From Terriglobia bacterium (GTDB lineage: Bacteria; Acidobacteriota; Polarisedimenticolia; Polarisedimenticolales; JAIQFR01), in assembly GCA_963748015.1 (NCBI GenBank), contig CAVVHE010000006.1, forward strand, positions 119,032 to 183,031: a stretch of 64,000 bases of DNA, given 5' to 3'. Of this stretch, positions 9,296 to 51,609 are shown one piece after another (the stretch's first letter is position 1; the number at the start of each line of letters is the position of its first letter). The translations under genes and the position numbers were made by a program. The notes beneath the pieces are model-generated. The model was not told the DNA's origin. It saw only the letters and a program-made list of their open reading frames with translations, and did no database searches.

Positions 9296-9388
9296 CGATA
9301 CCCTTCCTTCTCTGCGACCGTGCCCGTCGCGTTGCATGTTGCCGCCCGGCTTCGGGTGGAGCTTAGCCGTGCCGAGGGGGGCATGTAA

Positions 9389-9428
9389 CCTCGGGAAACT
9401 ACGGGCTTGTTGCCGTGGAATTACGAGG
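9389..9428 (-). promoter_or_regulatory. Tandem putative activator sites upstream of the receiver-domain operon
   Basis: CCTCGGG-AAAC-TACGGGC (9389-9406) and TGCCGTG-GAAT-TACGAGG (9411-9428), centres 22 bp apart; minus-strand -10 TAAGCT at 9365-9360. Confidence 0.6.
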
Positions 9429-9511
9429 TTCCCGGGCCGGGGACACGGCCCCGGCAATCGCGCCTGTCGACCGAGAGGCGCGATGCCGGGCCGATACGCC
9501 TTGGATGCGCT

Positions 9512-10561
9512 CTAGATCTCCCCGAACTGGAGGATGACCTTGATGTCGTCGGGCCTTCTCTCCAGGGCCTGCGCGAAATTCTCCGGCTTCTCGCGGCGGG
9601 TGATCAGGCGGCCCAGCCAAGCCCGGTCCGCGCGAGCCAGGATGTTCCCGGCCTTGTACCAGTGTCGCTTGTTGGCGTTGACGCTACCCACGATCACGTT
9701 GTTCTTCAGCACCGCGGCCGCGGCGATGTCGGCGCAGGCTGCGGACGTGACCACGCCGCCGTGCCCGACCCCGGTCAGGCACACGATCCCGCTCGACCCG
9801 ATCGCCTGGATCGAGTCGGCGATCACCTGTCCCACCCCGGTGCACTCGATGATGGCGTCCGGCTCGAAGCCGATTGCTTTCACCGAGCCGGAGTGATACG
9901 TCGCACCCAGGGCGCGCACCAGGTCCGGCTTGGGGCCCGATTCCACGCGGTCGAGGACGTGGACGTCCTGGCCGAACAGCTTGGCGCCGAGGGCCGCCAG
10001 AAGGCCGATCGGGCCCGCGCCGGTCACGAGCACGGTCTTCGGCTCCCAGAAGGACCGCCGGCCGATGGTCGCGACCTGTTCGAGGGCCTTCGTGATCACG
10101 GTCGTCGGCTCGAGGAGCACGCCGAGGATGCCCAGGGTGGGGTCGACCTTGATGGCGTACTCGGGCTCGATCCTCCAGCGCTCGGACATGTAGCCGTGGA
10201 TCTCCTTGATCCCGCGCTCGGTGTACTGGCCGTTGCGGCACATGTCCCACTCGCCCACCGCGCAGTTCGGGCAGGGGACCGGATCCGGGCGGCGGACGAT
10301 CCCCACGACCAGGTCGCCCTTCTTGAAGGAACAGGCCGGACCCGGATCGACGACGCGGCCGAGGGATTCGTGCCCCAGCACCAGGCGCGTCGCTCCCGGG
10401 GGCGCCCAGCCGTACTTGCCCTCGACGATCTCGACGTCGGTCCCGCAGACGCCGACGGCCACCGCCTCGACGAGAACCTGGCCTTCATGAACCCCGGGTT
10501 CCGGAAAGGCCTCCCAACGCGCCGATCCGGGATTCCTGGGTTCCACGGTGATGGCTTTCAT
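9512..10561 (-). CDS. Zinc-dependent glucose 1-dehydrogenase (MDR family)
   Basis: GVCGTD, LGHE, VRRPDPVPCPNC...C, ERGIKEIHGYMSE, LLEP, GAGPIG, GSVNAN. Confidence 0.88.
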   Translation of the reverse strand: MKAITVEPRNPGSARWEAFPEPGVHEGQVLVEAVAVGVCGTDVEIVEGKYGWAPPGATRLVLGHESLGRVVDPGPACSFKKGDLVVGIVRRPDPVPCPNCAVGEWDMCRNGQYTERGIKEIHGYMSERWRIEPEYAIKVDPTLGILGVLLEPTTVITKALEQVATIGRRSFWEPKTVLVTGAGPIGLLAALGAKLFGQDVHVLDRVESGPKPDLVRALGATYHSGSVKAIGFEPDAIIECTGVGQVIADSIQAIGSSGIVCLTGVGHGGVVTSAACADIAAAAVLKNNVIVGSVNANKRHWYKAGNILARADRAWLGRLITRREKPENFAQALERRPDDIKVILQFGEI

Positions 10562-10574
10562 ATCGCACTCGCTT

Positions 10575-12054
10575 TCACGACGCGCTCACCCGGAAGAGGT
10601 GGCACTTCCACGCCCCCATTTCGACGTACAGGCCGGCATCTCGCAGGTCGTCCCCGCTCCGGTCGTACACCTCACTCGACAGGACATCGTCGAGGCGCCA
10701 CGTCTTTCCTCTCAACTCATCCCAGGGCACGTGGACCCGGGCCTGGGCGGTTTCTCGTCCGAAATTGACGACGATGAGAAAGCGGTCTCCGTTCTTGACC
10801 CAGCACCAGCTGACGATGTTCTGGCAGCTCTGGTTGTCGGGCCAGCCGCTCCGCTCGCAGAGGCGCCATGTGCCCGTCCGAAAGACGCCGCGGTGGGTCG
10901 CCGTCAGCAAGCGCTCGTAGAAGGCGACCAGATCGCGATCGACCGGCTCTACCGGGCGGCGGCCCAGGAAGACCGGGAGCCTCGCCCTGAACCCTTCGAA
11001 CTGCCCCTCGTGCAGCAGCCTGGCCCCGGGAAGGGTGAGGATGGCCACCGCGGCGGCCCGGCCCTTCTCCCCCGGAAACGCGACGGCGGCCCTGGGCTCG
11101 TCATGGTTCTCGATGAACCGGACCATCCCCTCCTGGTAGGAAAGGTCCGCCAGGAGGTGCAGGCGGACGTTCTCGGCAGAAGCGTGCTCCATGCGGTCGT
11201 AGAGCTTCTTGTCGTAGCAATGATCGAAGCCTTGCTGCTGCAGCTCCCACTCGAGGTCCCAGTAGGCCTCGGCGATGAACCTGAACTCCGGCCACCGCGC
11301 CTTTGTCGCCGCGATGACGGTCGTCCAGTAGTCGTCGACGGGCCTGTCTCCGGCGCGGGCGCCCCAGGTGCGCTCGAAGATGTCGTTCAGCATGAGCATG
11401 GCCATGTCGCAGCGGATGCCGTCGCACTGCCCGGCGATCTCCGAGACGGTCTCGATCACCGCCTTCCGGAGCCCCGGCTGGAAGGCGTTGAGCTGGAGCA
11501 CGTCGGGCCAGGCGGGGAAGAACGGATCGCGTCCGCAGGCGAAAACGTTGCCTCCGGCCTCGAGGAAGGAAGCCGGATCTTTCTCGAGGTCGTTCCTGTC
11601 TCCCCGGACGAAGTACTCCGGGTGCTCGAATACCCAGGGGTGGTCCGGGGCGACATGGTTCGGCACGAAATCGAGGACGAGACGGATGCCGCGCGTCGCG
11701 AGAGCGTCGCGGGCCGCGGCGAGCCCTTCCGGCCCGCCGAGATGCGCGTCGACGACGTAGCGGCGCACGCAGTACGGCGAGCCGACGTTGTCCTCCGCGC
11801 GAGAAGTCGGGGAGGGCCCTCCTGAAGTCCTCGAGGAGGCCCGCGTTGCGCATGGAGATCTCGATGCCGGCGGGGCTCCGCTCCCAGACCCCCATGAACC
11901 AGACGGCGTCGAAGCCACGGGAGGCGATGGCGTCCCACTCCTGATTCGGAACCGTGGCGAGGTCCAAGGGCTGCCGGTATTTCCGGCTCAGCTCGTCGAG
12001 CCACACCCACGTGTTGATCTCGTAGATCACGGGATTGGTCGGCCACGGTTCCAT
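10575..12054 (-). CDS. GH13 alpha-amylase-family glycosidase; one frameshift near 11800
   Basis: N-terminus IYEINTWVW...WFMGVW in one frame, continuing as [36 protein letters not shown] in another. Confidence 0.85.
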
Positions 12055-12072
12055 GTCGCCCTCCCGCCGGAT

Positions 12073-14832
12073 TCAGGAAACGGGCTCCCCCGTGCCCTTT
12101 CGGGCACCCTGAACGAACGCGGCCTGCTTGCCCACCTCCAGGGCGCGCTTGGCATCCAGAAGGCCGTAGAGCTCGATGAGCTTGGCCACGAGCCCCGGTC
12201 CAGCCGGTCTGGTGACTGGCGCCCAGCCCCGCGCCGTTGTCGCCGTGGAAGTACTCGTAGAAGAGGATGTGGTCGCGCCAGTGGGGATCGGTCTGGAACT
12301 TCTCGGTGCCGCCGTAGACCGGGCGCCGGCCATGCTCGTCGCGGGTGAAGGTGCTGGTGAGCCGGTCGGCGATCTCCTTGCTCACCTCGAAGAGGTTCAT
12401 CATTCTTCCCGATCCCGTCGGGCACTCGATCTTGAAGTTGTCGCCGTAGTACAGGTAGAAGTTCTGCAGCGCCCGGATGATCAGCGCGTTCACCGGCATC
12501 CAGACGGGGCCCCGCCAGTTGGAGTTGCCGCCGAACATGCCGGTGTTCGACTCGGCCGGCAGGTAGTCCACCCGGTACTCCTGGCCGTTGCACGTGGAGG
12601 ACGTACGGGTTCCGCTCGTGGAACTTCGAGATCGAGCGGATGCCGTGGGGACCCAGGAACTCGTTCTCGTCGAGCATCTTCGTCAGGATCCGGCGGAGCC
12701 GCTCCGGGTTGACGCAGGGCCAGGATCCCCCGCTCGGCGACGCCGAGATGTCCCGGGCCGGTGGGGTGGATGGTCATCCATGAGCTCGGGCATGCGGCGC
12801 AGGCGTTCGTAGATCCCGGTCATCGCCCTCGGGATGCGCTCCCGCTGCGACTTCTCGATCACCGTGGTGGCGCAGAGGGGCAGGAGCCCCACCAGGGAAC
12901 GCACCTTGAGCCGCGTGGCGCTGCCGTCGGGGAGCCGCAGGATGTCGTAGTAGAAGCCGTCCTCCTCGTCCCACATGCCGTCCTGGCCGGGGCGGTTCAT
13001 GGCGGCGGCGATGTAGTAGAAGTGCTCCGACGAACTTGAAGACCATGTCCTCGTAGATGGGGTCGTGGGCGGCGAGCTCGACCGCGAGCTCCAGCATGTT
13101 CTGGCTGAAGAGGGCCATCCACGCCGTGCCGTCCGCCTGCTCGAGGTGGCCGCCGGTGGGAAGCGGGGCGCTGCGGTCGAAGACGCCGATGTTGTCGAGG
13201 CCGAGGAAGCCGCCCTCGAAGACGTTCTTGCCGAAGCGGTCCTTGCGGTTGACCCACCAGGTGAAGTTCAGCAGGAGCTTGTTGAAGGTCGACTTGAGGA
13301 AATCGAGGTCCACCTCGCCGCGCAGGGCCTGCTCGGTGCGGTGCAGGAAGAGCGTCGCGAAGGCGTGGACCGGGGGGTTCACGTCGCTGAAGTTCCACTC
13401 GTAGGCGGGCATCTGGCCGTTGGGGTGCAGGTAGGCGCCCGCGGAGCATCAGCTCCATCTGCTCCTTGGCGAAGTCGGGGTCCACGATCGAGAGCGGTAG
13501 CGTGTGGAAGGCCAGGTCCCAGGCCGCGTACCACGGGTACTCCCACTTGTCGGGCATGGAGATGATGTCCTCGTTCAGCATGTGGAACCACTCCGAGTTC
13601 CGGGCAGCTCGATATCCCGTGTGGAGCGGGTTGGAGTTGTGCTCGTCCAGCCAGTTGTCGCCGTCGAAGAAGAAGAACTGCTTGCTCCAGAGCATGCCGG
13701 CGAGGGCCTGGCGCATCACGTTGGCCGCGTCCTCGCTCACGGACGGCGGCGTGACCGACTTGTAGAACTCGTCGGCCTCGCGGAGCCTGTCGGCGAAGAC
13801 GTCGTCGAACGGCTTCCCGAAGGGCTTGCCTTTCGGGCCCGCGGACGGCCTTGGAGAGCCGCAGGCGGATCACCTTGCTCTGGCCGGCGCCGACAGGCGA
13901 CGTGGTAGTGCGCCGCGACCTTGGTGCCCTTGCTGGCCTGGGTTCACCGCGCCCTGGTTGCCGTGCACCACGCAGTCGTTGATGCCGTCCTTGACGTAGG
14001 GGCTCTCGTTCTTCTGCCCGGGAAAGAGCAGCTCGTGGTTCGTCTCGTTCTCGGTGAAGAGCAGCGGCACGTCGCCTTCGCAGGAGAGGATGAACTCGCC
14101 GAGCAGCGGATGCGTGGCCGCAACCGCGCTCGTGCCCGCCGTGCCCTCGATCTGCTCGAGGCTCGGCTTCCGGGCGGCGCGGTTGGATTCGGCGATCCAC
14201 GCCGACCAGTCGTTCCGGAACCACAGCGTCGGCAGAAGGTGCAGCTCGGCCGCGTCCGGTCCCCGGTTGGCCGCCGTGATCTTCACCAGGATGTCCTCGG
14301 CGCCGCCCTTGGCGTACTCCACGAAGACGTCGAAGTACCGGTCGTCGTCGAAGACGCCGGTGTCGAGCAGCTCGTACTCCATCTCGTTGCGAGTGCGGCG
14401 CCGGTTCGTCTCCACCAGGTCGGCGTAGGGATAAGGCGCCTGCGGGTACTTGTAGAGGTACTTCATGTACGAGTGGGTCGGCGTGCTGTCGAGGTAGAAG
14501 TAGTACTCCTTCACGTCCTCGCCGTGGTTCCCCTCGCTGTTGGTCAATCCGAAGAGCCGCTCCTTGAGGATCGGGTCCTTCCCGTTCCACAGGGCCAGCG
14601 CGAAGCAGAGGCGCTGCTTGTCGTCGGAGATGCCGGCCAGCCCGTCCTCGCCCCAGCGGTAGGCGCGCGAGCGGGCCTGATCGTGGGTGAAGAAATTCCA
14701 GGCGTCGCCGTTCTCGCTGTAGTCCTCGCGGACCGTTCCCCACTGGCGCTCGCTGAGGTAGGGCCCCCATTTCTTCCAGTCGATCTTCCGCTCGCGGGCC
14801 TCTTCGAGCCTGAGCTGTTCGGCTGTCTTCAT
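12073..14832 (-). CDS. MGH1-like GH63 glucosidase, broken by multiple frameshifts (probably sequence errors)
   Basis: [112 protein letters not shown] occur in order across shifting frames. Confidence 0.88.
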
Positions 14833-14959: not shown

Positions 14960-15005
14960 ATTCTAGTCGCGTTTCGGAGGGAGCTGGCCTAGTAAAGTTA
15001 CGAGG
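14960..15005 (-). promoter_or_regulatory. Putative activator-dependent promoter of the glucosidase-amylase-glucose dehydrogenase operon
   Basis: Palindrome CCTAGTA-AAGT-TACGAGG at 14988-15005; -10 TAGAAT at 14965-14960; weaker second half-site (GAAC-TACGATG) ending at 15028. Confidence 0.65.
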
Positions 15006-15120: not shown

Positions 15121-15882
15121 TTACTTGCAGCGGCCGAAGCAGGCGAACGGCGGAGAGAACAGCATGACGCCGAACTCGATTCCCGGACCGCTCGAGCCGC
15201 TGAACTCGGCGCCATAGGTAATCGCGAAGACGGCATACGGGTTCGGCTCCCAGCGCACGCCGGCCCGGTATTGCGGGGGGGACCCCGCCTCGCCCTTCGC
15301 ACCATAGATCTCCCCGACGAGCGACCATCGCGGGTTGACGGGGTACCACGCCAGGCGGGTGCAGTAGGTGAAATCCCAGGACGTTTCCTCTTCCTCTCCG
15401 TAGTTACGGGTCACACTCACGCCCGGCGTGACGTCCCAGGACAGCTTGTCGCGGAGGAACGGCACGGTCAGGGGGGTATTCACCCAGTAGGTCTGGAACG
15501 CATCGTTCGTCCTGGCGTCCACGTCCAGGTAGCCCGGGAACATGCCGGTGCCGAACTTGACCGCCATGCCGCCGGTCTTCGCCTTGTTCTCGTAGAACAT
15601 GTACTTGGCATACAGCGAATTCGAGTACCCGTCGTTGGTCGTCGGGTCGTTGTCGTCGTTGTAGAAGTACCCGGATACGGTGAACTCCCATTTGGGAAAG
15701 AGCGAAAACGTGGTCATCAACATCGAGTTTCGTTGACCCACGGTGGGGATGATCGTCACCGTGCCGTGGGGTTTGGACAGCCAGCTGTCGGAGTTGAACT
15801 GCTGGGCCTGGGCCGGAGCAAACGTCAGGGCCACCGAGAGGAACAGCGTTGCAAAGGCGATTCTCGATACGTGGAGTCGCAT
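15121..15882 (-). CDS. Secreted/outer-membrane hypothetical protein
   Basis: Signal peptide ending AQAQQ; aromatic beta-strand pattern; C-terminal FSPPFACFGRCK. Confidence 0.72.
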   Translation of the reverse strand: MRLHVSRIAFATLFLSVALTFAPAQAQQFNSDSWLSKPHGTVTIIPTVGQRNSMLMTTFSLFPKWEFTVSGYFYNDDNDPTTNDGYSNSLYAKYMFYENKAKTGGMAVKFGTGMFPGYLDVDARTNDAFQTYWVNTPLTVPFLRDKLSWDVTPGVSVTRNYGEEEETSWDFTYCTRLAWYPVNPRWSLVGEIYGAKGEAGSPPQYRAGVRWEPNPYAVFAITYGAEFSGSSGPGIEFGVMLFSPPFACFGRCK

Positions 15883-15980
15883 GTAGTTCCCGTCTGCAGT
15901 CACGTTGAACCGGAAGGTCCCTACCACCCTTAGCTCGACCAAGCCGGTGGTCATGGGTGCCGGCTCCTGACGGCGAGAGA

Positions 15981-16026
15981 ATGTTAGACGAGCCGCGGAG
16001 GCTCGTGACCTCGTAAAACTACGGGG
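15981..16026 (-). promoter_or_regulatory. Putative activator-dependent promoter directly downstream of the NarL-type regulator gene
   Basis: Palindrome CCTCGTA-AAAC-TACGGGG at 16009-16026; -10 TAACAT at 15986-15981. Confidence 0.68.
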
Positions 16027-16065: not shown

Positions 16066-16713
<648 letters not shown>

Positions 16714-16717
<4 letters not shown>

Positions 16718-20816: not shown

Positions 20817-20826
20817 GGAGAACGCG

Positions 20827-21836: not shown

Positions 21837-21845
21837 GACCCACTC

Positions 21846-23420: not shown

Positions 23421-24577
23421 GCGGCTCTCGCACGGCGGACGGTCCCCTGCGGATCGCCATCACCTGCTACCCGACGGTCGGCGGCAGCGGCATTCTCGCC
23501 TCGCAGCTCGGGCAGCAACTGGCGGCGCGGGGCCACGAGGTGCACTTCGTCTCCTACGGCATGCCGTTCCGGCTGGACGGAACGGCGCCCAACATCTTCT
23601 TCCACCCCGTGAGCGTCAACGAGTACGATCTCTTCCGCTATCCGGACTACACGCTGCCGCTCTCGGTGACTCTGGCGGAGGTCAGCCGGGACTTCGATCT
23701 CGACCTGATCCACGCGCACTACGCCGTGCCGCACGCCGTCGCTGCCTACCTGGCCCGGCAGATGATCGGGGAGGGAGCGCCTCGCGTCATCACCACGCTG
23801 CACGGCACCGACACGACGCTCATGGGGCAGGACCCGAACTACCAGCCCGTGATCCGCCACGCCATCGAGCACTCTTCGGGGGTGACGGCGGTGAGCGCAT
23901 TCCTTCGCGACGAGACGAAGAGCACCTTCCAGGTGGAGCACGAAATCCGCGTCATCCACAACTTCTTCGCGCCCATCAGCCCGAGCCGCGACCGGGAGCG
24001 GGTGCGCGCGGAGCTGGGGGTCGGCGACGAGCTCCTGGTGCTCCACATGTCGAACCTCCGGCCGGTCAAGCGGATCGATGACCTGCTGCGGGTCATCGCC
24101 GCCTCGCGGCACCGCGACCGCGTGCGGCTCCTGATCCTGGCCGGAGGCGACTTCGCCCCGTACCGCCGGCAGGTCGAAGCACTCGGGATCGCGTCGCAGG
24201 TGACCGTGATGCAGTCGGTACTGGACGTGGAGAACTACCTCAACGCCGCCGACGTGGGGCTGTACACCTCCGAGCACGAGTCGTTCGGCCTGAGCATCCT
24301 GGAGAGCATGTTCCACCGACACCCGATTCTCGCGGCGCGCGCCGGCGGCGTCCCGGAGGTCGTCGTGGACGGGGAAACCGGTTTCCTGGCGCCGGTGGGG
24401 GACATCGACGGCCTCGCCGGGAAGCTCGACGCGATCGTGGAGGATAGGGAGCGCTACCGGCCGATGGGGGAGCGGGGCTACGAGAGGGCGAGGGCGCTCT
24501 TTTCCGCCGAGCGGATCACGGGGGAGTATCTCGATTTCTACCGGCAGGTTCTAGTGTCCCGGGAAGCGCGGGAGTAG
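23417..24577 (+). CDS. bshA: N-acetyl-alpha-D-glucosaminyl L-malate synthase (GT4)
   Basis: ITCYPTVGGSG, HAHYAVPHA, TTLHGTD, SNLRPVKR, ESFGL; probable CTG start overlapping the upstream TGA, after GGGGAGG. Confidence 0.88.
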   Translation: MSGSRTADGPLRIAITCYPTVGGSGILASQLGQQLAARGHEVHFVSYGMPFRLDGTAPNIFFHPVSVNEYDLFRYPDYTLPLSVTLAEVSRDFDLDLIHAHYAVPHAVAAYLARQMIGEGAPRVITTLHGTDTTLMGQDPNYQPVIRHAIEHSSGVTAVSAFLRDETKSTFQVEHEIRVIHNFFAPISPSRDRERVRAELGVGDELLVLHMSNLRPVKRIDDLLRVIAASRHRDRVRLLILAGGDFAPYRRQVEALGIASQVTVMQSVLDVENYLNAADVGLYTSEHESFGLSILESMFHRHPILAARAGGVPEVVVDGETGFLAPVGDIDGLAGKLDAIVEDRERYRPMGERGYERARALFSAERITGEYLDFYRQVLVSREARE

Positions 24578-24592
24578 GCGGGGGACGAAGAC

Positions 24593-27097: not shown

Positions 27098-27142
27098 CTC
27101 CGTGACACGATCCGGCCGGCCGGACCGCGGGAAGCCGACCGC

Positions 27143-38739: not shown

Positions 38740-39303
38740 ATGCTCAGGAAACTCGCGGCTGTCCTGTCCGGCGCGCTGCTCGCCGCGCTCGTTGCTCCCG
38801 GCCTCTGCACGGCTACCCGGGCCGAGGAGGCGAAGGCGCCCTCCCCGGCGGAGCCTCAGACCAACGTTCGCGTCACGATCCGCCTCGGCAGGATGGAGCA
38901 GGGGAAGCGCAACGTGTTGAAGAGCTACGACCTCGTCGTAGCGGCGGGAACCGTCGGCTCGAAGCTACTGAGCGGCGCCAGGGTTCCGATCCCGACCGCC
39001 GGCAGCGATGCCGCCGAGAAGGGCGTGGGGAACGACGGCGCAACCCGCTTCGTCTACCAGAACATCGGTTTCTCGGTCGACGCGAAGGTGTGGATCGTCG
39101 GCGACAAGAAGATCAAGCTCCTCGCTGAGCTCGAGGACAGCCGCGTCAAGGAGCGCACCGGGAACCAGCCCCCCTTCGTCGAGACCCGGCAACTGTCGAT
39201 CAACGCGATCCTCTCGGATGGAGCACCGCTGGAGGTGACGCGGGTCGAGGGAGAGGCGGATCAGCCGGGATTCGTGGAGATCGAGGCGAAGGTCCTGCGG
39301 TAG
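38740..39303 (+). CDS. Secreted hypothetical protein (187 aa)
   Basis: GAGGAGG RBS, signal peptide; GARVPIPT...FVYQNIG is loosely like secretin-domain strands. Confidence 0.72.
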   Translation: MLRKLAAVLSGALLAALVAPGLCTATRAEEAKAPSPAEPQTNVRVTIRLGRMEQGKRNVLKSYDLVVAAGTVGSKLLSGARVPIPTAGSDAAEKGVGNDGATRFVYQNIGFSVDAKVWIVGDKKIKLLAELEDSRVKERTGNQPPFVETRQLSINAILSDGAPLEVTRVEGEADQPGFVEIEAKVLR

Positions 39304-39337
39304 CCGTCTCGCGCGCGGCGCCCCCCAGCGGGCCGCC

Positions 39338-39406
39338 CGGACTCGGCGGCTTGGGTTCGTAGCCGGCCCTTTTTCGGGCCGGCGAGAACCCAAGCCGCCG
39401 AGTCCG
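39338..39406. terminator. Long hairpin between convergent genes (bidirectional terminator or REP-like element)
   Basis: Perfect 21-bp outer arms 39338-39358 / 39386-39406 plus inner 8-bp stem GCCGGCCC/GGGCCGGC around a TTTTTC loop. Confidence 0.7.
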
Positions 39407-39428
39407 AGCGGCGAGAGTAACAGCCTTC

Positions 39429-40158
39429 CTACACGAGCCGGCGCAGAACGCTCGCGCCGACGCCCAGCCCGAGAAGCACGAGACCCGAAAGGCCGACAAG
39501 CGGCAGCGAGCTTCCGGTCTTGGGGAGCTTGGCGAGGCTCGGCCGGCGGCGGCGGGGGCGGGGGAGCAGGCGCCGCGACCGGAGCGGGTTTCGGCGGGGG
39601 AGGCGGCGGCGGGGGCTGCGCGACGAAGACCTTCAGGTCCTGGTCGGTGATGATCTCCGGCGGGTGTTTCGTCACGATCGTCGCGGTGAGGCGGTCGCCC
39701 GGCTTCAGCTTGCTGGGCTCGACCTCCTTGCCGCCCACCAGGACGACCACGTTCCTGGTCCTGAGCTCCTGGACGGTGAACTTCTTCAGCTCCTTCGTCT
39801 GGAGGTCCCGAACGACGACCACGCCGGCCGTGCTGTAGACGACCTCCGCCTCGCGCACGTCGGTGGTCGTCACGTCGATCGGCGTCTCGGTGGTGGTGAT
39901 CATCGCCGTGTACTTCATGCCCGGCTTCAGGTCGCGGACGGAGAGCTTCTGCCCGTTCATGTCGAACCGGTAGTTGTCCGGGACGACGAACTGCTTCACG
40001 CCCTGCGGCCCGCGAACGGTCACCACGTTGCCTTCCACCGCCAGCACTTCTCCGTTGCGAAGCTCCATTGTCGTGGTCTGGGCGCTCGCAGGAGTCACGA
40101 GGGCCGGGCTCGCCGCGGCGACCGTCAGCAGTAAAGCGATAAGGAACACACGTCTCAT
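39429..40158 (-). CDS. Secreted protein with a Pro-rich linker and a C-terminal LPKTG sorting-like signal; one frameshift near 39534
   Basis: Signal peptide, two OB-like repeats (LKPGM / LKPGD), poly-Pro; after removing one base it reads AKLPKTGSSLPLVGLSGLVLLGLGVGASVLRRLV* (stop 39429-39431). Confidence 0.78.
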
Positions 40159-40364: not shown

Positions 40365-40382
40365 ACTAGTAAAACTACGAGT
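40365..40382. promoter_or_regulatory. Copy of the recurring palindrome in the divergent LPKTG-protein / OmpA intergenic region
   Basis: ACTAGTA-AAAC-TACGAGT; a weak plus-strand -10 candidate (CAGCAT) starts at 40405, the same 31.5-bp offset. Confidence 0.6.
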
Positions 40383-42103: not shown

Positions 42104-43117
42104 CTAGCGGGGCGTGACGGCGTAAGGGTTCGCGCCCAGCTTCTCGTCCACGAACTGGATCGCCTTCTGCGCCTTGACGCTGTTGCCCGCGGCGTCGAGC
42201 GGGGGCGAGATCACAGCGATCCCGAACTTCCCCGGCGAGACGGCGAGAATACCGCCGCCGACGCCGCTCTTCCCCGGCAGCCCCGTCTTGTAGAGCCATT
42301 TGCCGGAATCGTCGTAGAGGCCCGCGGTCGCCATGACGGCCAGGACCTCGGGGACGTTCTCGTTCTTCATGACCTGCTTGCCGGTCACCGGGTTCTTCCC
42401 GCCGTTCGCGAGCGTGGCCGCCATCGTGGCGAGGTCCTTCGCGTTCACGCTGATGGCGCACTGCTCGGTGTAGATGTCGGTGGCCTGCAGCGGCTTGTCC
42501 TTGATGTGGCCGTAGGCGTACATGAGCATCGAGATCGCCTGGTTGCGCTGGTTCGTGTCGGCCTCGGACTTGAAGACCTCCTGGTTGACCGACAGCGGCC
42601 GCCCCGCGAACTCCCCGTGCCAGGCCAGGATCTTCTTCCAGATCTCGTCGCGGCTCGCGCCCTTGACCATGCTCGTCGTGGTGATGGCGCCGGGGTTCAC
42701 CATCGCGTTCATCTCCGCGCCCTTGTACTGCTCGACCGCCACGATCGAGTTGAAGACCTGCCCGGTCGCGTCGACGCCCATGTTGTTGTAGATCGCGTCG
42801 GTGCCCTGCTCCTCCATCACCAGCGCCATCGTGAAGACCTTCGAGATCGACTGGATGGACACCTCGGACTTGACATCGCCTGTGGTGTAGATCTTCCCGT
42901 CCACCGTCACGAGCGCGATGCCGAAGATCTTGGAGTCCACCTTGGCGAGCGCTGGGATGTAGTCGGCGTTCTTGCCTTCCTGGAGCCCGACGTACTTGTC
43001 GTACGCCGCCTTGAGCGCGGCATCGATGTCGGCCTTCGCCGGCGCCTGCGCGTACGCGGCCATCGTGGCGGCACACGCGATCAGGACGAGCGCTGCGATC
43101 AGGAATCGGTTCCGCAT
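42104..43117 (-). CDS. glsA: Glutaminase A with an N-terminal signal peptide
   Basis: GKNADYIPALA, SIQSISK (catalytic SxxK), FNSI, NAMVNPGAI, GLYDDSG, PGKSGVGGG, GNSV. Confidence 0.93.
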   Translation of the reverse strand: MRNRFLIAALVLIACAATMAAYAQAPAKADIDAALKAAYDKYVGLQEGKNADYIPALAKVDSKIFGIALVTVDGKIYTTGDVKSEVSIQSISKVFTMALVMEEQGTDAIYNNMGVDATGQVFNSIVAVEQYKGAEMNAMVNPGAITTTSMVKGASRDEIWKKILAWHGEFAGRPLSVNQEVFKSEADTNQRNQAISMLMYAYGHIKDKPLQATDIYTEQCAISVNAKDLATMAATLANGGKNPVTGKQVMKNENVPEVLAVMATAGLYDDSGKWLYKTGLPGKSGVGGGILAVSPGKFGIAVISPPLDAAGNSVKAQKAIQFVDEKLGANPYAVTPR

Positions 43118-43123
43118 GACGGG

Positions 43124-44323
43124 CTATCCTCCGAACTTCATCGAGAAGTTGTACTTGAACGAGACCTGCAGGCGGTAGTCGTCCACCGTCCAGCCGTCCG
43201 AGTTGTTCTGGCGCTGGCCCCACTGGAACTCCGCCCCGTACATGACGCCCGGGACCGGAGTGCGGAGGAGGTTGACGAGCGCATACTGCCCCTTCTTGAA
43301 CGCGCTCGACGACTGTCCGTCGCTGTTGTCGATGTCCACCATCGAGTAGCCGATGCTGGTGCTCAACTTGCTGCTCCACGAGTGGTCGAGGAAGGCCACG
43401 ATGCCGAGGATCGGCAGCGGCTCGCCGGGGTCGGTCGGATCCTCCGTGATCCCGACGTCCACGGTGGCGTCGTTCATGTAGTTCTCGATCCCCTCGCCGT
43501 AGACGACCGACGCCCGGAGGACGTCATCCGAGAACTTGAAGTTCGTGCTCAGGTTCACGCCCCAGCCGAGCGCATCTCCCGATAGGTCGTAAACTCCCGG
43601 GTCCATGTCGTCCCACTTGATCTCGCGGAGAATGCCGGCCGCCTGGACGTGCCCCCACTTCCTCGTCATCCGGTAGTGCGCGGAGAGGTCCGGGAGCGGG
43701 TAGCGGCCCTTGACCCGGCCGGGTTCGATGATATCGCTGTAGTTCCCGGCGTCACCGGAGGCGCCCGGCCGCTCTAGGGCCACGAACAGCTCGTCCTCGC
43801 CCTGCATGGGCATCCAGCGGATCTGGACGTTCCGGAAGAAGACCATGCCGCTCGGCCCCCAGTACTCGATCGAGTTCGGGAACACGTCGATGTCCATGAA
43901 CGGGCTCCAGGACTGGCCCGCGCCCCAGTGTCCCAGCTCTCCCCAGGCGTGCCGCAAGCGGATCGTCGTCTGCCCCGCGTCCGCGCCGACCCCGAACATC
44001 TCGAACTCGAAGATGGTCTTCAGCTCGCCGAGGGCCGTGGGGAAGTACCCCTTCACGCCGAGCCGGCTCTGGCGCACGCCGGCGTAGGTGTTTCCGTCCT
44101 TGCCCCACTGGTCCTTGTACTCAGGGAGCTTCGTCGGCCGCACCACGTCGAACCAGTCCGGGTCCGTCTGCTTGAAGTCGTACCCCATGTCCAGCATCGC
44201 GAAGCCGTAGAGCTCCACCTTCGGTTTTTCCTGCGCGAACGCAGGGATTGCCAGGACGGCGAGAACCGCCACCGCGACGACCGCGAGCGCGCCCGCCCGG
44301 CGTCTTACGATTCCACTCCGCAT
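43124..44323 (-). CDS. DcaP-family trimeric outer-membrane porin
   Basis: Signal peptide; RQSRLG, RLRHAWG, GQSWSPFMD, QIRW, ALERPG; C-terminal KYNF. Confidence 0.85.
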   Translation of the reverse strand: MRSGIVRRRAGALAVVAVAVLAVLAIPAFAQEKPKVELYGFAMLDMGYDFKQTDPDWFDVVRPTKLPEYKDQWGKDGNTYAGVRQSRLGVKGYFPTALGELKTIFEFEMFGVGADAGQTTIRLRHAWGELGHWGAGQSWSPFMDIDVFPNSIEYWGPSGMVFFRNVQIRWMPMQGEDELFVALERPGASGDAGNYSDIIEPGRVKGRYPLPDLSAHYRMTRKWGHVQAAGILREIKWDDMDPGVYDLSGDALGWGVNLSTNFKFSDDVLRASVVYGEGIENYMNDATVDVGITEDPTDPGEPLPILGIVAFLDHSWSSKLSTSIGYSMVDIDNSDGQSSSAFKKGQYALVNLLRTPVPGVMYGAEFQWGQRQNNSDGWTVDDYRLQVSFKYNFSMKFGG

Positions 44324-44339
44324 CTTGCCTCCTCCTTTG

Positions 44340-45422
44340 CTATCGGACGTTGGCTTTTTCCCAGGCCCGCACACGGCGGCGCGCCTCGTCGAACAGACGT
44401 TCGTAGTTTCCCTTCAGCAGCTTCTCCCTGGCCTCGGGGGTCAGCCTGGCCAGCAGGGGAGCGTACATGTCGTAGACCTTCAGGTATTTCTTCTGATCGG
44501 ACGGGGCCACCTCGTCCGTACCGAAGAGAAATCGGTCGGGGTGGCGGTTGATCACGTCGGCCGTGGCCTGGGTCGCCTCGGGGCTCGACACCACGTACTT
44601 CGCGACCTCGTCCCACGAGATGTCGAAGTAGACGTGCGCGAGCTCCGGATTGTTGATCGCCCGCTCGATGATCCCGAGCTGGTCGTGAATGGGGTGGACG
44701 ATGCGGCCGAGACCGATGTGCGCCCAGATGGTCGTGGTTCGCGGGTGCCGCTTGAAGAGGTCCCGGAGCTGATAAACCTGGTAGGGCTCTTGTCCCGGCT
44801 TCGGGAACGGGGTGTCGATGTCGCTGTGGAGGAGCACGACGAGCCCCGCCTCCGCGGCGAAATCGAAGATCCGGTCCAGCGCGGGGTTCGTGAGGCTCGC
44901 CGTCTCCCCCGCGATCTTGGCCGACACGAACTCCTTGTGGATCGTGAACTCGCCGATCCCCGAAAACACTCCGGGAAACGTCGTCAGCACGCGCTTGATG
45001 TGGTCCACCGCGTACATGTCCGCCGGGTTGAACCCCGTGATCATCGGGTCGAATCGGGCCTGCTCCTCCTTCGTGAGGGACCTATACGCCATCGCGATGA
45101 AGGCGTCGGTGAAGGAGTAGTAGTAGAGCGGCGCGTCGGTCTGCAGGTAGTAGGTCGGGGCGAAGTCGCCGGTGTTCCCGTACGACCAGGTCTGCTGCAG
45201 CGGCAGGCCGAACAGCGTGGACCGGCCGACCTTGTCCCCCATGATCTTCAGGAACTCGCGGATGTCCGTGCCCTGCTGGACGTAGTTCGTCAAATGGAGG
45301 TGCGCGTCGTTCACGACGTAACCGTCCGCGCCGGCCGCAACGGCGGCCGAGCGCCCGGCGGCGAGCACGAGCCCGACCGAGATGACGGCGACGCAGATCC
45401 ACCGGTTCCGGACGTGTCTCAT
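44340..45422 (-). CDS. Secreted amidohydrolase-family (TIM-barrel) protein
   Basis: Signal peptide; DAHLH, GIGEF, LLHSD, IWAH, YFDISW, RFLFGTD. Confidence 0.85.
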   Translation of the reverse strand: MRHVRNRWICVAVISVGLVLAAGRSAAVAAGADGYVVNDAHLHLTNYVQQGTDIREFLKIMGDKVGRSTLFGLPLQQTWSYGNTGDFAPTYYLQTDAPLYYYSFTDAFIAMAYRSLTKEEQARFDPMITGFNPADMYAVDHIKRVLTTFPGVFSGIGEFTIHKEFVSAKIAGETASLTNPALDRIFDFAAEAGLVVLLHSDIDTPFPKPGQEPYQVYQLRDLFKRHPRTTTIWAHIGLGRIVHPIHDQLGIIERAINNPELAHVYFDISWDEVAKYVVSSPEATQATADVINRHPDRFLFGTDEVAPSDQKKYLKVYDMYAPLLARLTPEAREKLLKGNYERLFDEARRRVRAWEKANVR

Positions 45423-45438
45423 GATCCGACTCCTTCCG

Positions 45439-46995
45439 TCAGAACAGAATCGACGTGGCCACCGAAACCGTCGGCCCCTTCTGCCCGCCCACGTAGAAGC
45501 CGAACGTGCTGCTGGCCGGGGAGCGGTCCACGCGCATGAACTGCAGGTTCGACCGAATGTTTCGGGAGTCGAACCAGAAGTAGTTCATGCCCAGGAGGTA
45601 CTCGTGGCTCGTCTTGAACCCGGCGCTCTCGTCGCCAAACACCCACGACGTCGCGCCGTACACCTCGAGCTTCTTCTTGATCGGGTAGCCGGCGGCCTGC
45701 ACGTAGAAGCCGGTGTCGACGATCTCCGTGACCGGAATCGGCCCGTCCGCCTTGAAGCCGTTGAGCCACCGCTTGTACATCTCGACCTGGACGAAGATAC
45801 CGCGGTACTTCACGCCGGCGTCCACCGACAGGAGGCGAACGTCGGCCTCTTGCACGGTGAAGCCCGTGGCCAGCGAGCCCGTGTCGAAGAGGTTGAGGCT
45901 GTCGGCGATCTTCACCTGGGTGTTCTCGGGCGTGCCGTCCGCCTGTTCTTGCCGGTCCTCCCCGCTCCTGGCCACCGAGAATCCGAACCGCGTCGCCACC
46001 TTCTCGTGGTACTCCCAGTCGTCGTACGCGCCGTTCGGGCCGAACTCGTGCGTCGTCGGCATCCACCACATCGACCCGCCGGTGGCGAGGCTCCTGTTGA
46101 GCTGCTTGGCGGTGATGCCGAGATTGCTCAGGTTGTTGCCGACGGCGAGCTGGTACCAGAGGCCCGGCGCCACCTCGCCGTTGGCCCAGATGCCGTTGGT
46201 GAACGCGCCCCGGAAGAACTCGTCGGCCATGACGCGGTCGTTGGCCAGCCAGAACGGGTGGGATCCGTACAGCGAGCGGCTTCCCCCGATCCCGTTCGTG
46301 CCGCCGTAGAGGTTGAAGTACTTGTTGAACTGGTAACCGAAGAAGCCGTACAGGGTCGTCTGGTCGGTCGACTGGACGGTCCAGATGGTGATCTGGTAGC
46401 GGAACTTCGGCGAGCCGAGCCACCCTCGGAAATGGACCATCGCACGGTGAAACTGGATGTCCCTGCGGGTGTCGATGGGGCGCACGCCCCCGAGGTGATC
46501 GGTGAACTCCTGTGTGGCCGGCATCTGGTTGATGTACCGCACGAGCGCGTAGCCGCCGATCTTCAACTCGCCGGCGCTCGTCCGGCCGACCAGGAAGCCC
46601 GAGCCGCTGGCGTCGAACACCCCATAGCTCGACCGTTCGGGCTCGTCCGGTCCCGCGTTGGGTCCACCGATGAACTTCTCCTTCGCGCTCGCGGGCTCCG
46701 GGGGCGTGCCAGCCGCCTGCCCCAGCACGAACTCGCCGCCGCACCCATCCGAGACCCAGATGCCCTTGTCGTCGTAGCCCCACGTCTTGCCCAGGAGGCA
46801 CGGCGCGGCTCCCGCGGCAGCGACGAGCGCGACGCCTGCCGACGTGTTGGCGGGGCAGTGATTGCGGCTGCCCGCGTCGGAGGAGCAGGTGATCTTCGAG
46901 CCGGGAGAGGCCGGCGGGGCGGCGAGTGCCGGCAGGAAACCGGCGCCCGCGAAGACTAGGATCAAGACCGTCAGGCCCTTCGAATACCCCGTCAC
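45439..46995 (-). CDS. Outer-membrane porin-like protein with an N-terminal Cys-rich DUF3011-like domain
   Basis: GGAGG + GTG 46995; CSS...NHC...CLLGKTWGYDDKGIWVSDGCGGEF; long beta-strand-rich region ending in Phe. Confidence 0.75.
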   Translation of the reverse strand: MTGYSKGLTVLILVFAGAGFLPALAAPPASPGSKITCSSDAGSRNHCPANTSAGVALVAAAGAAPCLLGKTWGYDDKGIWVSDGCGGEFVLGQAAGTPPEPASAKEKFIGGPNAGPDEPERSSYGVFDASGSGFLVGRTSAGELKIGGYALVRYINQMPATQEFTDHLGGVRPIDTRRDIQFHRAMVHFRGWLGSPKFRYQITIWTVQSTDQTTLYGFFGYQFNKYFNLYGGTNGIGGSRSLYGSHPFWLANDRVMADEFFRGAFTNGIWANGEVAPGLWYQLAVGNNLSNLGITAKQLNRSLATGGSMWWMPTTHEFGPNGAYDDWEYHEKVATRFGFSVARSGEDRQEQADGTPENTQVKIADSLNLFDTGSLATGFTVQEADVRLLSVDAGVKYRGIFVQVEMYKRWLNGFKADGPIPVTEIVDTGFYVQAAGYPIKKKLEVYGATSWVFGDESAGFKTSHEYLLGMNYFWFDSRNIRSNLQFMRVDRSPASSTFGFYVGGQKGPTVSVATSILF

Positions 46996-47126: not shown

Positions 47127-47172
47127 ATCATAGCGCGGGTCGGCGGTGCAGGGACCTCGTAAAACTACCAGC
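47127..47172 (-). promoter_or_regulatory. Putative activator-dependent promoter of the porin-amidohydrolase-DcaP-glutaminase operon
   Basis: Palindrome CCTCGTA-AAAC-TACCAGC at 47155-47172; -10 TATGAT at 47132-47127. Confidence 0.68.
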
Positions 47173-49033: not shown

Positions 49034-49708
49034 ATGACGGGTAAGCGTGCGGGAATGCTGGCCGTGCTCGCGGCGATCGCCGTGCTTGCCGGCTCGAGCG
49101 TCTGGGCGGTCGACGAGCCGGTCGTCGGTCACTTCTCCTTCGGGCCGAGCTTCCCGCAGGGAGACGCCACCAAGGCCCTCAAGGATGGTTGGGCGATCCA
49201 CGGCGGCGCGACCTGGTTCTCTCCGAGCAAGCCGGCGCTGGGCCTCCGGCTGGATTTCGGCATCGATTGGTACGACATGAAGGACGAGTTCCTGAGGGGG
49301 ATCGACACGAACCCCGACACCGAGATCATCGAGCCGCCGGACAACGGCTACGGACGGGCCTGGTCGGCGACCGCGGATCTCATGTGGAACCCCAGGAGCA
49401 AGGGCAAAGTAGGCGTGTATCTCGTCGCCGGTGCCGGTATCTACTACACCCAGGCTTGGCTTTCCGAATACGGCTACGGCACGGGCTACTATTGCGACCC
49501 GTGGTGGGGCTACTGCTACCCGTATGCGGGCACCGCCGAGTATCTGCTCGAATCCCAGTCCAACTGGGAGTGGGGTCTCAACGCCGGCATCGGGATGACG
49601 ATCAAGATCAGCGAGAGGTCGGAGCTGTACCTGGAAACCGTCTATCACTGGATCGACACGAAGAACGGCGCCGAGATCCTCCCCGTGAGCCTCGGGTTCC
49701 GCTGGTAG
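49034..49708 (+). CDS. Outer-membrane beta-barrel protein (OmpA-like) with a Cys/Trp loop
   Basis: AGGAGG RBS; signal peptide; YLVAGAGIY, YYCDPWWGYCYP, WGLNAGIG, LGFRW end. Confidence 0.78.
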   Translation: MTGKRAGMLAVLAAIAVLAGSSVWAVDEPVVGHFSFGPSFPQGDATKALKDGWAIHGGATWFSPSKPALGLRLDFGIDWYDMKDEFLRGIDTNPDTEIIEPPDNGYGRAWSATADLMWNPRSKGKVGVYLVAGAGIYYTQAWLSEYGYGTGYYCDPWWGYCYPYAGTAEYLLESQSNWEWGLNAGIGMTIKISERSELYLETVYHWIDTKNGAEILPVSLGFRW

Positions 49709-49731
49709 CTTCGAGAGCCGTAGCATCCACC

Positions 49732-49774
49732 CGCCGGGCCGCGCGGCTCACGCGCCGCCCGGCGTCCGTCTTTT
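49732..49774 (+). terminator. Possible intrinsic terminator
   Basis: GC-rich stem CGCCGGGC..GCCCGGCG followed by TCCGTCTTTT. Confidence 0.4.
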
Positions 49775-49900
49775 CCGGACCGTTCCCGCCGGGCGCGATC
49801 CTCGCGGACGACGTCACGGTTCTGGTCCTCGCGCGCGGGTGAATGCTGGCGGTACGGGCCTTGCGGGATGTGGAGTCATGACGAGACGAGGGGTGTGCCG

Positions 49901-50749
49901 ATGAAGCGGACGAGGGCGGGCTTCGTCGCGCTCGCGGTATTCGCGCTCGCGTCTCACGGCGGGACTCGGGCCGAGATGCCGGGCGAAGTCCCGGACAAGC
50001 TGCGGTTCTCCCTCGGCGGCATGCTGGCCAACGCCTTCACGGACGCCGGATACGGCTCCGTGAGCGCCGGCCTCGGCGGCACCGTGAACTTCGAGGACAG
50101 CTTCGGCCTGCCCTCCAACAAGGACATCTTCCGCGCCGACGTCAGCTGGCACGTCGCCAAGCGCCAGCTCATCGACTTCGGCTACTTCAAGCTCGACCGG
50201 TCCGGCTCGAGCGTCCTCGACGAGGACATCCAGTGGGGCGACTACGTCTACCAGGCCGGCGGCGAGGTGAGCGCGCGGTTCAACTCCGAGTTCATCTACG
50301 GCGCCTGGCGCTACCTGTTCCTCGACCTGCCCGAGGTGCGGCTCTCCGGCTCGGTGGGAGTGAGCGACATCGGCCTCGAGGCGGGTCTCGTCGCGTCGGG
50401 CACCGTGACCGATCGCGAGGGCAACGTCGTCGAGGGCACCGTCGACGAGGCCGCCCGCGTCACGGCGCCGGTGCCGATGGTCGGCCTGCAAGTCGACTAC
50501 GCGCCGACCCCTCGCCTGGCGTTCCTGGGGTTCTACCGCACCCTCTACGTCAAGGACGTCGCGGGCATCGACGGCTCGCTCGCCGAGACCTCGATCCGGA
50601 TGAGCTGGTGGTATGCCAGGCACGCCGGTATCAGCGCCGGCATCGACACCGAGAACATCGATTTGAGGTCCTACGAGAAGGGCGATACGAAGGCGCGCTT
50701 CCGCTACCAGGTGCGCGCCGTATCCGTCTATCTGACCTTTGCCCTCTAG
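49901..50749 (+). CDS. Hypothetical outer-membrane beta-barrel protein
   Basis: Signal peptide; PGEVPDKLRFSLGG; beta-strand pattern; paralogous to 51610..52446. Confidence 0.72.
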   Translation: MKRTRAGFVALAVFALASHGGTRAEMPGEVPDKLRFSLGGMLANAFTDAGYGSVSAGLGGTVNFEDSFGLPSNKDIFRADVSWHVAKRQLIDFGYFKLDRSGSSVLDEDIQWGDYVYQAGGEVSARFNSEFIYGAWRYLFLDLPEVRLSGSVGVSDIGLEAGLVASGTVTDREGNVVEGTVDEAARVTAPVPMVGLQVDYAPTPRLAFLGFYRTLYVKDVAGIDGSLAETSIRMSWWYARHAGISAGIDTENIDLRSYEKGDTKARFRYQVRAVSVYLTFAL

Positions 50750-50807
50750 CGCGCGCGGGTGGGCCTCCGAATCGAATGAAGTACACTATCGGGTGGAGGA
50801 TTCTCAC

Positions 50808-51464
50808 ATGCCGAAATCGGGACGAGTCGCAATCGCCGCCTTCGTCGTGACCTGCCTGGCGGCCGCAGCGGGGGCCGCGCTCGCCGAGGAGAAGGCGCCC
50901 CCACCCCAGCAGGAGCAGGCGCTCCAACCGCAGACCGAGGTCTTCACCGGGACGCTCATGATCGTGAGCGGGCCGGGTGGGGCTCAAATGGGCCGGATCA
51001 AGATCACGGTGGAGCACTGGACGACCGACGAGGAGCGGAAGACGCTCGCCGAGGCGATCCGCTCGGGTAACGAGGCGAGCCGCGGAGGTAACGACGCCCT
51101 CGTCGACGCGATGGACAAGCTGCAGGCCGGCTACGTGCAGATCGAGAACAACCTGCGCTGGCCGATCCGCTCCGCCGCCTCGTGGAAGACCGAGAAGGGC
51201 CGCAAAGTCCGATTCGCGACGAACCGGCCGATCAACTACCAGGAAACCGCGATGAACAGCCGGAGCTCCGACTACCCAATCGGGTTCATCGAGTTGGTCC
51301 TTCCCCCCGAGGGGAAGGGGGAAGGCGTGCTCCTAGTCGCGACGCAGGTCGAGTTCGGCTCGGACGGCAAGCTCCAGGTGAGATCGCTTCCGACCAACAC
51401 GGGGCCGCAGAAGGTCACGAATGTCGTCTCCGAGCTGCTCAAGCCGAAGAAGAGCAAGAACTAG
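50808..51464 (+). CDS. Secreted hypothetical protein
   Basis: TACACT -10 candidate, GGAGG RBS, signal peptide; WTTDEER, ATNRPI, DYPIGFIEL, GKGEG. Confidence 0.75.
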   Translation: MPKSGRVAIAAFVVTCLAAAAGAALAEEKAPPPQQEQALQPQTEVFTGTLMIVSGPGGAQMGRIKITVEHWTTDEERKTLAEAIRSGNEASRGGNDALVDAMDKLQAGYVQIENNLRWPIRSAASWKTEKGRKVRFATNRPINYQETAMNSRSSDYPIGFIELVLPPEGKGEGVLLVATQVEFGSDGKLQVRSLPTNTGPQKVTNVVSELLKPKKSKN

Positions 51465-51477
51465 TAGAAGTACCAGG
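51460..51477 (+). promoter_or_regulatory. Additional candidate copy of the recurring palindrome upstream of the 51610 operon
   Basis: ACTAGTA-GAAG-TACCAGG overlapping the upstream stop codon; extended -10 TGATAAGAT at 51532-51540. Confidence 0.45.
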
Positions 51478-51609
51478 TCGACAGCCGAGACCGATCTTGG
51501 ATCGGATGGCACCTCTCCCGACGCGCGAGCGTGATAAGATCCGCTTCGATCAAGCTCTCGGCCATGGAGGATCCGTGCCGGGCCTCGGGCCGGGGGATGG
51601 GGGCTGCCC

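Follow-up and report, generated by a model that had tools for sequence, protein, structure and literature searches.

The 64,000-nucleotide stretch analysed here (the window; positions 119,032 to 183,031 of contig CAVVHE010000006.1, assembly GCA_963748015.1, Terriglobia bacterium) carries a recurrent 18-bp DNA box, together with genes for a cytoplasmic sensor kinase, a NarL/FixJ-family response regulator and a lone pseudo-receiver (hereafter the trio). The motif is real. With a probability of about 0.78, the regulator encoded at 16066-16717 binds this box; phosphorylated by the GAF-PAS kinase, it would activate the promoters of its island, including that of a pseudo-receiver that likely damps the circuit. 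Both the binding and the transcription start are predicted from sequence architecture, spacing, intergenic position and co-occurrence of box and regulator.

The box and its promoters

A first-pass annotation of the window had reported seven related 18-mers, at 9389, 9411, 14988, 16009, 40365, 47155 and 51460, all of which are present at these coordinates. A seed matrix built from these seven window sites retrieved 128 matches in the 1.27 Mb surrounding 80 orthologues of the regulator (the best 80 of 473 relatives in genome contigs, 75-93% identical), versus 2 in shuffled sequence, and a box was found no more than 130 bp 3′ of the regulator gene in 56 of the 80 loci. Additionally, unseeded Gibbs sampling of the 170 bp behind the regulator in 69 de-duplicated regions returned CCCGTAGTTTCCCGAGGTCACAGC at 21.0 bits, versus 7.8-8.2 bits for shuffled input. 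In its oriented form, the element consists of an upstream box at a 23-bp period, CCYCGTARTTTYCCGAGG, a conserved -35-like GTCACA, 17 bp and TAnnnT, and the logo shows the same order, with a weaker box at -23 followed by the main box, TCACA, 17 bp and TAnnnT. The 18-bp 7-4-7 layout is present in the box. However, the perfect palindrome CCTCGTA-N4-TACGAGG, under which the motif was first described, was rejected, since it has no exact copy in the genome and only four copies with one mismatch. The matrix-strand orientation scored above the reverse in 35 of 35 non-homologous promoters, indicating that the motif is an oriented, imperfect palindrome.

The matrix excludes the -10 hexamer, and 115 matches outside the training windows served as a held-out set. 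Regarding intergenic enrichment, a check proposed with the first description, 113 of these 115 sites proved to be intergenic, versus 18% of all bases. TAnnnT, whose background is 0.38% per intergenic position, was found at exactly 22 bp from the box in 75 of the 115 sites, at 23 bp in five and at 21 bp in one. Among the 75 promoters with the 22-bp gap, 61 carry a -35-like (G/T)T(C/T)AC and 33 an upstream box at 22-25 bp. The same layout was observed across 35 non-homologous targets (one promoter each), and a looser promoter-like site in 76 of the 80 loci. TCACA is read as the -35 because it follows the proximal box only. When the T of the -10 is placed at -12, the spacing puts the box centre at -43.5, in support of the class II position near -43.5 suggested earlier; the predicted geometry is thus that of a class II activator, with its centre near -42 to -44, abutting the -35, and the -10 at a fixed distance. 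The accompanying claim that none of these promoters has a good -35 holds for 14988 and 47155 but fails for 16009 (GTCACG), for 9389 (GTTACA) and for the 61 held-out promoters. A conserved C is found at -13 and at -8, and the spacer is weakly conserved. Across all loci, a degenerate copy of the right half-box lies at +23 within this spacer, with a mean score of -4.2 bits where controls give -8.8 and -14.9, and may represent a third weak site over the -10 spacer. In two loci (L121:1127-1220 and L114:2915-3003), divergent box promoters stand back to back at a distance of about 90 bp, and each of them has a -35 and a -10 of its own.

To avoid circularity, the window sites were scored with a matrix derived from other genomes only (50 of the 69 de-duplicated regions):

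9360..9365, minus strand: predicted -10 hexamer TAAGCT, serving the 9389 box
9389..9406, minus strand: primary box, 25.7 bits; GTTACA, 23-bp gap to TAAGCT; heads the lone pseudo-receiver operon
9411..9428, minus strand: secondary box upstream of 9389, at a distance of 22 bp; 6.9 bits, genome rank 447
14988..15005, minus strand: primary box, 17.3 bits; 22-bp gap to TAGAAT (14960-14965)
16009..16026, minus strand: primary box, 26.2 bits; immediately 3′ of the regulator gene
40365..40382, minus strand: doubtful box, 12.7 bits, rank 47; TAnnnT absent at 10-39 bp, the nearest at 43 bp
47155..47172, minus strand: primary box, 19.0 bits; 22-bp gap to TATGAT (47127-47132)
51460..51477, no strand given: site of the first-pass annotation, 9.0 bits, rank 213; stop-codon overlap, TAnnnT absent at 10-39 bp

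Full promoters with box and TAnnnT are present at four of the seven sites, namely 16009, 9389, 47155 and 14988, which rank second, third, tenth and twelfth in the 4.83-Mb genome. Their -10 distances are as first described, the box centre lying 31.5 bp away (22-bp gap) at 14988, 16009 and 47155, and the gap being 23 bp at 9389. The 16009 promoter comprises GTCACG (16004-16009), a 17-bp spacer and TAACAT (15981-15986). The left half of the 9411 box fits the matrix and its right half is weak, as in orthologues, and 40365 is possibly a distal site for 38965-40158. The match at 51460 is probably due to chance: given its low score, its overlap with a stop codon and the lack of a -10 at 10-39 bp, it was rejected both as a site and as grounds for assigning the cluster behind it as targets, so that the "many secreted proteins" of the first description (49055-58175) are left with this weak site as their basis. 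Genome-wide, a box of at least 7 bits with TAnnnT at 22 or 23 bp occurs seven times: four copies lie in the window and two on contig C9, and the seventh falls within an uncalled kinase frame (C8:745099) and is taken as chance. The credible promoters in 4.83 Mb therefore number six, in two islands, all of them accessory regions. A metatranscriptome with 5% of the words yielded short contigs, mostly from other organisms, and no start site or expression for this genome.

Regulator, kinase and lone receiver

The three proteins of the trio are encoded as follows:

16066..16717, minus strand: NarL/FixJ-family response regulator, receiver plus GerE helix-turn-helix (HTH) with helix RTVEFHKY, from domain hits; orthologues of 216 aa
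16714..18699, minus strand: cytoplasmic GAF-PAS-PAS-HisKA_3-HATPase sensor kinase without membrane segment; overlaps the regulator start
8891..9295, minus strand: lone receiver (Pfam Response_reg) with Arg at the second acidic position (D-R-H-H)

Residues D7, D8, D51, T79 and K101 are invariant in 35 regulators, the DD, D, T and K positions being intact, and H470 is invariant in 62 aligned kinases. The regulator reached the cut-off of no NCBIfam family, the best matches being MctR (157.8 bits, cut-off 300), SsrB (154.7, cut-off 242) and FixJ (107.2, cut-off 255), and the kinase scored 100.9 bits against the FixL family (cut-off 850). The RTVEFHKY helix is found in only two proteins of the genome, with a box directly behind each gene, and in none of nine other LuxR-type or similar HTH matches. 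A second copy of the trio (G000:C5:1-200000, L104) is closest to Verrucomicrobiota proteins (regulator piece 88%), and its regulator is frameshifted too; the stretch has a G+C content of 59-68%, versus about 69% elsewhere, and may be chimeric, a contaminant or the product of a large transfer.

As regards the sensor domains, the GAF domain is predicted with a confident fold (pLDDT 91), and no His or Cys is invariant across 41 GAF sequences. The kinase-proximal PAS is conserved above the GAF (mean column identity of 66% versus 51%) and carries several conserved histidines, among them H374 (55 of 56) and H414 (53 of 55). Fold searches with the modelled GAF and last PAS gave generic GAF/PAS matches only, with no ligand. 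In a few kinases (L083, L088, L090 and L104; 3 of the 62 aligned), a membrane or periplasmic N-terminal part replaces the GAF, the regulator and the box being kept.

The lone receiver is present in 42 of the 80 loci and is the steadiest target, since a box promoter precedes 40 of its 44 genes. In 48 of 48 lone receivers the second acidic residue is Arg (Asp-to-Arg), while Asp57 (98%), Ser85 and Lys107 (96%) are kept; this combination makes it a pseudo-receiver by the definition given in the available portion of PMC12632262. An atlas search with this protein returned unnamed receiver clusters only. According to excerpts of the respective papers, FixT is a single-domain receiver induced by its own system that acts as a feedback inhibitor (PMC7078487), and Osp is a single-domain receiver activated by its system's regulator that inhibits the kinase (PMC9430884). 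Given that induction by the own system and kinase inhibition are common to FixT and Osp, a feedback-brake role may be proposed by analogy for the lone receiver. The view is slightly favoured that this pseudo-receiver, in which the Mg-binding acid is missing, either inhibits the kinase or forms an unproductive pair with the regulator.

The best 80 of the 473 relatives span at least nine phyla: Acidobacteriota (28), Actinomycetota (20), Gemmatimonadota (8), Pseudomonadota (7), Myxococcota (3), Verrucomicrobiota (3), Planctomycetota (2), Chloroflexota (1) and Margulisiibacteriota (1), with 7 unassigned. The regulator is patchy, being found in 8 of 61 genomes of the window's group and in 12 of 81 around one Thermoleophilia genome. 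High identity combined with patchy occurrence suggests cross-phylum transfer; some bins may be mislabelled. In a regulator tree of 61 of the 80 loci (rows outside 195-230 aa or uncalled being left out), phyla are mixed (11 changes, the least possible being 7) and support is weak. Most of the window has no DNA-level match in five close genomes, save for the block 21845-29908 and scattered genes.

A strict box plus TAnnnT pattern was scanned in the genomes of 50 of the 80 loci, giving 73 matches in 33 of these regulator-bearing genomes, and none with the reversed control. By coordinates, the distance to a regulator gene is at most 10 kb for 53 of the 73 matches and at most 50 kb for 63, and 10 are on contigs other than the regulator's, the predominance of nearby matches arguing for a regulon that is island-local rather than global. 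Around the Thermoleophilia genome, the pattern was found in 12 of 12 genomes with the regulator versus 2 of 69 without it, a co-occurrence in which 9 of the 12 positives were training loci and the negatives are independent of pattern tuning. In the window's group it was found in 2 of 7 genomes with the regulator versus 0 of 53 without, and in another phylum in 0 of 150 sampled genomes. More distant orthologues (61-66% identity) have a box of at least 12.5 bits nearby in 5 of 6 cases; near all four paralogues examined (42-46%), no box of at least 9 bits was found. Likewise, one genome of the same genus lacks the regulator, and its GH63 homologue is not accompanied by a box, 4.9 bits being the highest score in 9 kb. 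From co-occurrence and box proximity, the likely factor is the regulator encoded at 16066-16717 together with its cytoplasmic GAF-PAS-PAS kinase, in agreement with the first-pass annotation.

Several observations weigh against this reading. The strict pattern is absent from 17 of the 50 regulator-bearing genomes, it was tuned on these very loci, so that only 3 of 3 positive Thermoleophilia-group genomes are new, and related genomes are not independent. Two genomes have a strict match and no detected orthologue. Strong boxes of the window's own genome at C9:220878 and C8:732299 (the latter of 20.4 bits, preceding an alginate-export-type porin gene) have no TAnnnT within 70 bp. As for transfer, the tree is no proof of it, a single clade for the 21 Acidobacteriota rows not being rejected (p-AU 0.152). 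Finally, the regulator gene is frameshifted in this assembly, its ATG at 16717 being one base out of frame with the remainder of the gene; an assembly error is likelier than a pseudogene, since the assembly also contains two breaks in a transporter gene that is whole in close relatives.

Cargo and comparison with known systems

Apart from the lone receiver, the predicted targets in the window are the following:

9512..14832, minus strand: operon for a GH63/MGH1-like glycoside hydrolase (frameshifted), an alpha-amylase-family protein and a glucose dehydrogenase
15121..15954, minus strand: exported protein without Pfam match; homologues in box-bearing loci
42104..46995, minus strand: operon for a DUF3011-containing exported protein, an amidohydrolase, a DcaP porin and glutaminase A

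The glucoside, glutaminase/porin and lone-receiver operons, already proposed as targets, are box-led in other genomes too. An operon of the 9512..14832 type is box-led in two loci (L118 and L119) and is present on a Rhizobium plasmid, and each gene of the 42104..46995 operon is box-led in 8-11 of the 80 loci, its glutaminase A matching NCBIfam PRK12356 above cut-off. This plasmid, of Rhizobium leguminosarum ATCC 14479 (NZ_CP030763.1, L100), was the sole match among 72,556 plasmids; it carries the trio with dehydratases, SulP, a glucosidase, an amylase and a glucose dehydrogenase, and its boxes score 13-23 bits, the best (22.8 bits) preceding a DUF2092 gene. Across loci, the recurrent cargo comprises an SsuA-like binding protein (29 loci, 21 box-led), a CoA-disulfide reductase-rhodanese (23, 14), DcaP (19, 11), glutaminase A (16, 9), DUF7144 (15, 13) and an SBF transporter (12, 12). 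An arginine-type decarboxylase with a permease is box-led in one locus and a DUF3300-DUF2950-Ca/H exchanger set in another. The only glutaminase and the only serine dehydratase of the window's genome are both box-led, and an aspartase-asparaginase operon has a strong box and no -10. The cargo is therefore modular and differs between lineages. In one locus (L032:10638-11717), a box promoter heads an AraC-family regulator gene, hinting at a second regulatory tier.

The second island of the genome (G000:C9:190000-235000, L101-L103) has no regulator copy of its own and encodes an AspT-type antiporter, an RND pump, PPK2, SulP, a K channel, NhaA, aspartase, asparaginase, serine dehydratase and a Ca/H exchanger, with boxes at 194578, 208172 (TAATCT at 24 bp), 220878 and 229285. 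Within the window, 5973-8233 holds remnants of an SsuA-like binding protein and a SulP transporter, which are whole and box-led in other loci, and the island may be decaying in this genome. The block 21845-29908 contains a bshB1-like gene and bshA, both of the bacillithiol type, along with genes for a PIG-L protein and a sodium symporter; it is 78% identical in two same-genus genomes and is flanked by accessory regions. The GH63 gene (12194-14832) and the symporter gene (27143-29007), the latter intact in relatives, are frameshifted, which suggests assembly indels.

Several known systems resemble the one described here. According to excerpts of PMC4999443, the FixJ site is an 18-bp imperfect palindrome with two sites per promoter, GTAGTTTCCC having been selected in vitro by SELEX (systematic evolution of ligands by exponential enrichment) and TAAGTAATTTCCCTTA mapped at fixK. 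The box has the identical 10-bp core (GTAGTTTCCC / GTAATTTCCC), whereas its outer arms are CYC/GAG instead of the TAA/TTA of FixJ; on the box matrix, the published FixJ site scores 17.8 bits in the core and -20.6 in the arms, a total of -2.8. The FixLJ-FixT systems of Sinorhizobium and Caulobacter share a single-domain receiver with the trio, as far as excerpts of PMC7078487 describe them, its induction by the system being predicted here. However, the regulator falls well short of the FixJ cut-off, the HisKA_3 kinase here has a GAF, no fixK-type target was seen in this system, and the lone receiver has no 4-Cys motif.

The DevR/DosR system of Mycobacterium has a cytoplasmic GAF kinase, and the kinase described here is likewise cytoplasmic with a GAF, although no invariant haem-ligand His is found in 41 such domains. 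Both regulators belong to the NarL family, and tandem boxes with the proximal one on the -35 are shared at the sequence level; DevR promoters carry closely packed primary and secondary boxes, the proximal overlapping the -35, in the accessible part of PMC3029386. Since the kinase-regulator operon is headed by only 1 of 143 box promoters, positive autoregulation appears to be lacking, unlike in DevR/DosR, and the trio also differs in being island-local and cross-phylum, with other cargo. SsrB of Salmonella, in excerpts of PMC2837388, recognizes an 18-bp 7-4-7 palindrome with no strict spacing to the start site and belongs to a horizontally acquired island. The 7-4-7 palindrome and the island-encoded regulator are features shared with SsrB and with EsrB of Edwardsiella; SsrB is the second-best NCBIfam match, yet under its cut-off, and EsrB is among the top solved HTH matches to the regulator. 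In contrast to SsrB, the box here is strictly spaced and there are no secretion-system targets.

EvgA of E. coli is, like the regulator described here, a member of the NarL family, but its box probably differs from the present one, the regulator scores 90 bits against an EvgA cut-off of 251, and the kinase is cytoplasmic and non-hybrid. According to excerpts of PMC11434309 and PMC9765748, E. coli acid resistance involves glutaminase, arginine decarboxylase and serine deaminase, and the glutaminase, decarboxylase-antiporter and RND efflux cargo recalls EvgS-EvgA (PMC11434309), as does the locus with a box before an AraC-type regulator gene. Osp of Rhodobacter sphaeroides, in excerpts of PMC9430884, likewise is a single-domain receiver under its system's regulator (a predicted relation here), although it belongs to the CckA-ChpT-CtrA phosphorelay, of the OmpR family. 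Taken together, the trio would work like the FixJ, DevR and SsrB systems and is a member of none. No paper on the motif or the trio was found in the searched literature, which falls short of most subscription papers and RegPrecise; one literature match to the motif letters proved to be primers.

Signal, alternative readings and significance

In the proposed mechanism, the cytoplasmic GAF-PAS kinase would phosphorylate the NarL/FixJ-family regulator, which would then bind two boxes 23 bp apart, presumably as cooperative dimers with the proximal box touching the -35, by analogy with DevR and FixJ. From about -43.5 it would activate housekeeping-sigma promoters of genes of its own mobile island, including that of the lone pseudo-receiver, which may damp the circuit in the manner of FixT and Osp. 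The weakest step is the signal. At somewhat less than even odds, the tentatively favoured signal is an internal stress of acid or ion balance in low-oxygen sediments and wet soils, because box promoters precede the genes for glutaminase A, serine dehydratase, the arginine-type decarboxylase and its permease, and cation/proton exchangers. It is not placed higher because the sulfur-redox module is as common, the SsuA-like protein and the CoA-disulfide reductase-rhodanese outnumbering glutaminase both in loci (29 and 23 versus 16) and in box-led cases (21 and 14 versus 9).

Accordingly, the alternative that survives best keeps the same factor and promoters and replaces acid as the kinase's signal by low oxygen, redox or a sulfur metabolite; its core output would be the binding protein, the CoA-disulfide reductase-rhodanese, and glycyl-radical and dehydratase cargo. 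Box promoters precede these genes in a larger number of loci and phyla than they do glutaminase, the box contains the core of the oxygen-responsive FixJ site, as excerpted above, and the kinase-proximal PAS, with its conserved H374 and H414, is the best-conserved part of the sensor. However, this version is unlikely, if far from negligible, considering that the GAF has no invariant His or Cys, that the predicted folds are those of generic GAF and PAS domains, that the kinase lies far below the FixL cut-off and that no oxidase, haem-synthesis or Crp/Fnr gene was found among the annotated neighbour clusters.

Typical general-stress genes include those for glucoside hydrolase, amylase, glucose dehydrogenase, glycogen enzymes and polyphosphate kinase. 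The presence of genes of this type in the cargo, the two promoters on another contig and the 10 strict matches off the regulator's contig would fit a genome-wide general-stress or stationary-phase regulon, similar to the scattered programme put forward in the first-pass annotation. Such a regulon is improbable and the scattered programme was set aside, since the few credible promoters are confined to accessory regions in two islands, most strict matches lie within 10 kb of the regulator, and the regulator itself occurs in a minority of related genomes. Less probable still is that another factor, a true FixJ or other LuxR-type protein, binds the box: the core is identical to that of FixJ, the genome has nine other LuxR-type or similar HTH matches, and two genomes have sites where the regulator was not found, but the FixJ site fails on the box matrix because its arms differ, none of the other HTHs has the RTVEFHKY helix, and 67 of 69 and 53 of 53 regulator-less genomes lack the pattern. 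That the 46-bp element is instead the promoter of an alternative sigma factor, or a copied promoter without a protein-binding palindrome, would agree with its very rigid spacing, the conserved C at -13 and -8 and the weakly conserved spacer, but is very improbable given that the box recurs at a 23-bp period without TCACA and TAnnnT (which accompany the proximal box only), that the layout holds across 35 non-homologous targets, that no sigma factor is found among the annotated neighbour clusters and that Rfam gave no match within the window.

The reading of the box as the site of the island's own NarL/FixJ-family regulator has several implications. Regulons of Acidobacteriota, Thermoleophilia and Gemmatimonadota are almost unmapped, and here a likely factor, its box, the promoter geometry and predicted targets come together. 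NarL-type class II activation is an already known mechanism, which limits the surprise. The cultured Rhizobium strain with the trio on a plasmid makes the system testable, and dozens of genes of unknown function (DcaP porins, DUF7144, DUF3300/DUF2950, the SsuA-like protein) are grouped under one condition. Additionally, the box and the FixJ site form a natural pair for DNA-recognition studies, with a shared core and different arms, and the highly conserved pseudo-receiver family bears on how pseudo-receivers act. More speculatively, and with even less assurance than the acid signal, the trio may be a self-contained, universal plug-in regulon moving among at least nine phyla with a single, unaltered 46-bp promoter design usable by RNA polymerases from Actinomycetota to Pseudomonadota, host-specific interchangeable stress cargo and an undescribed Arg-substituted pseudo-receiver brake. 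If true, this plug-in regulon of uncultured soil and sediment bacteria would represent a ready-made, broad-host inducible switch.

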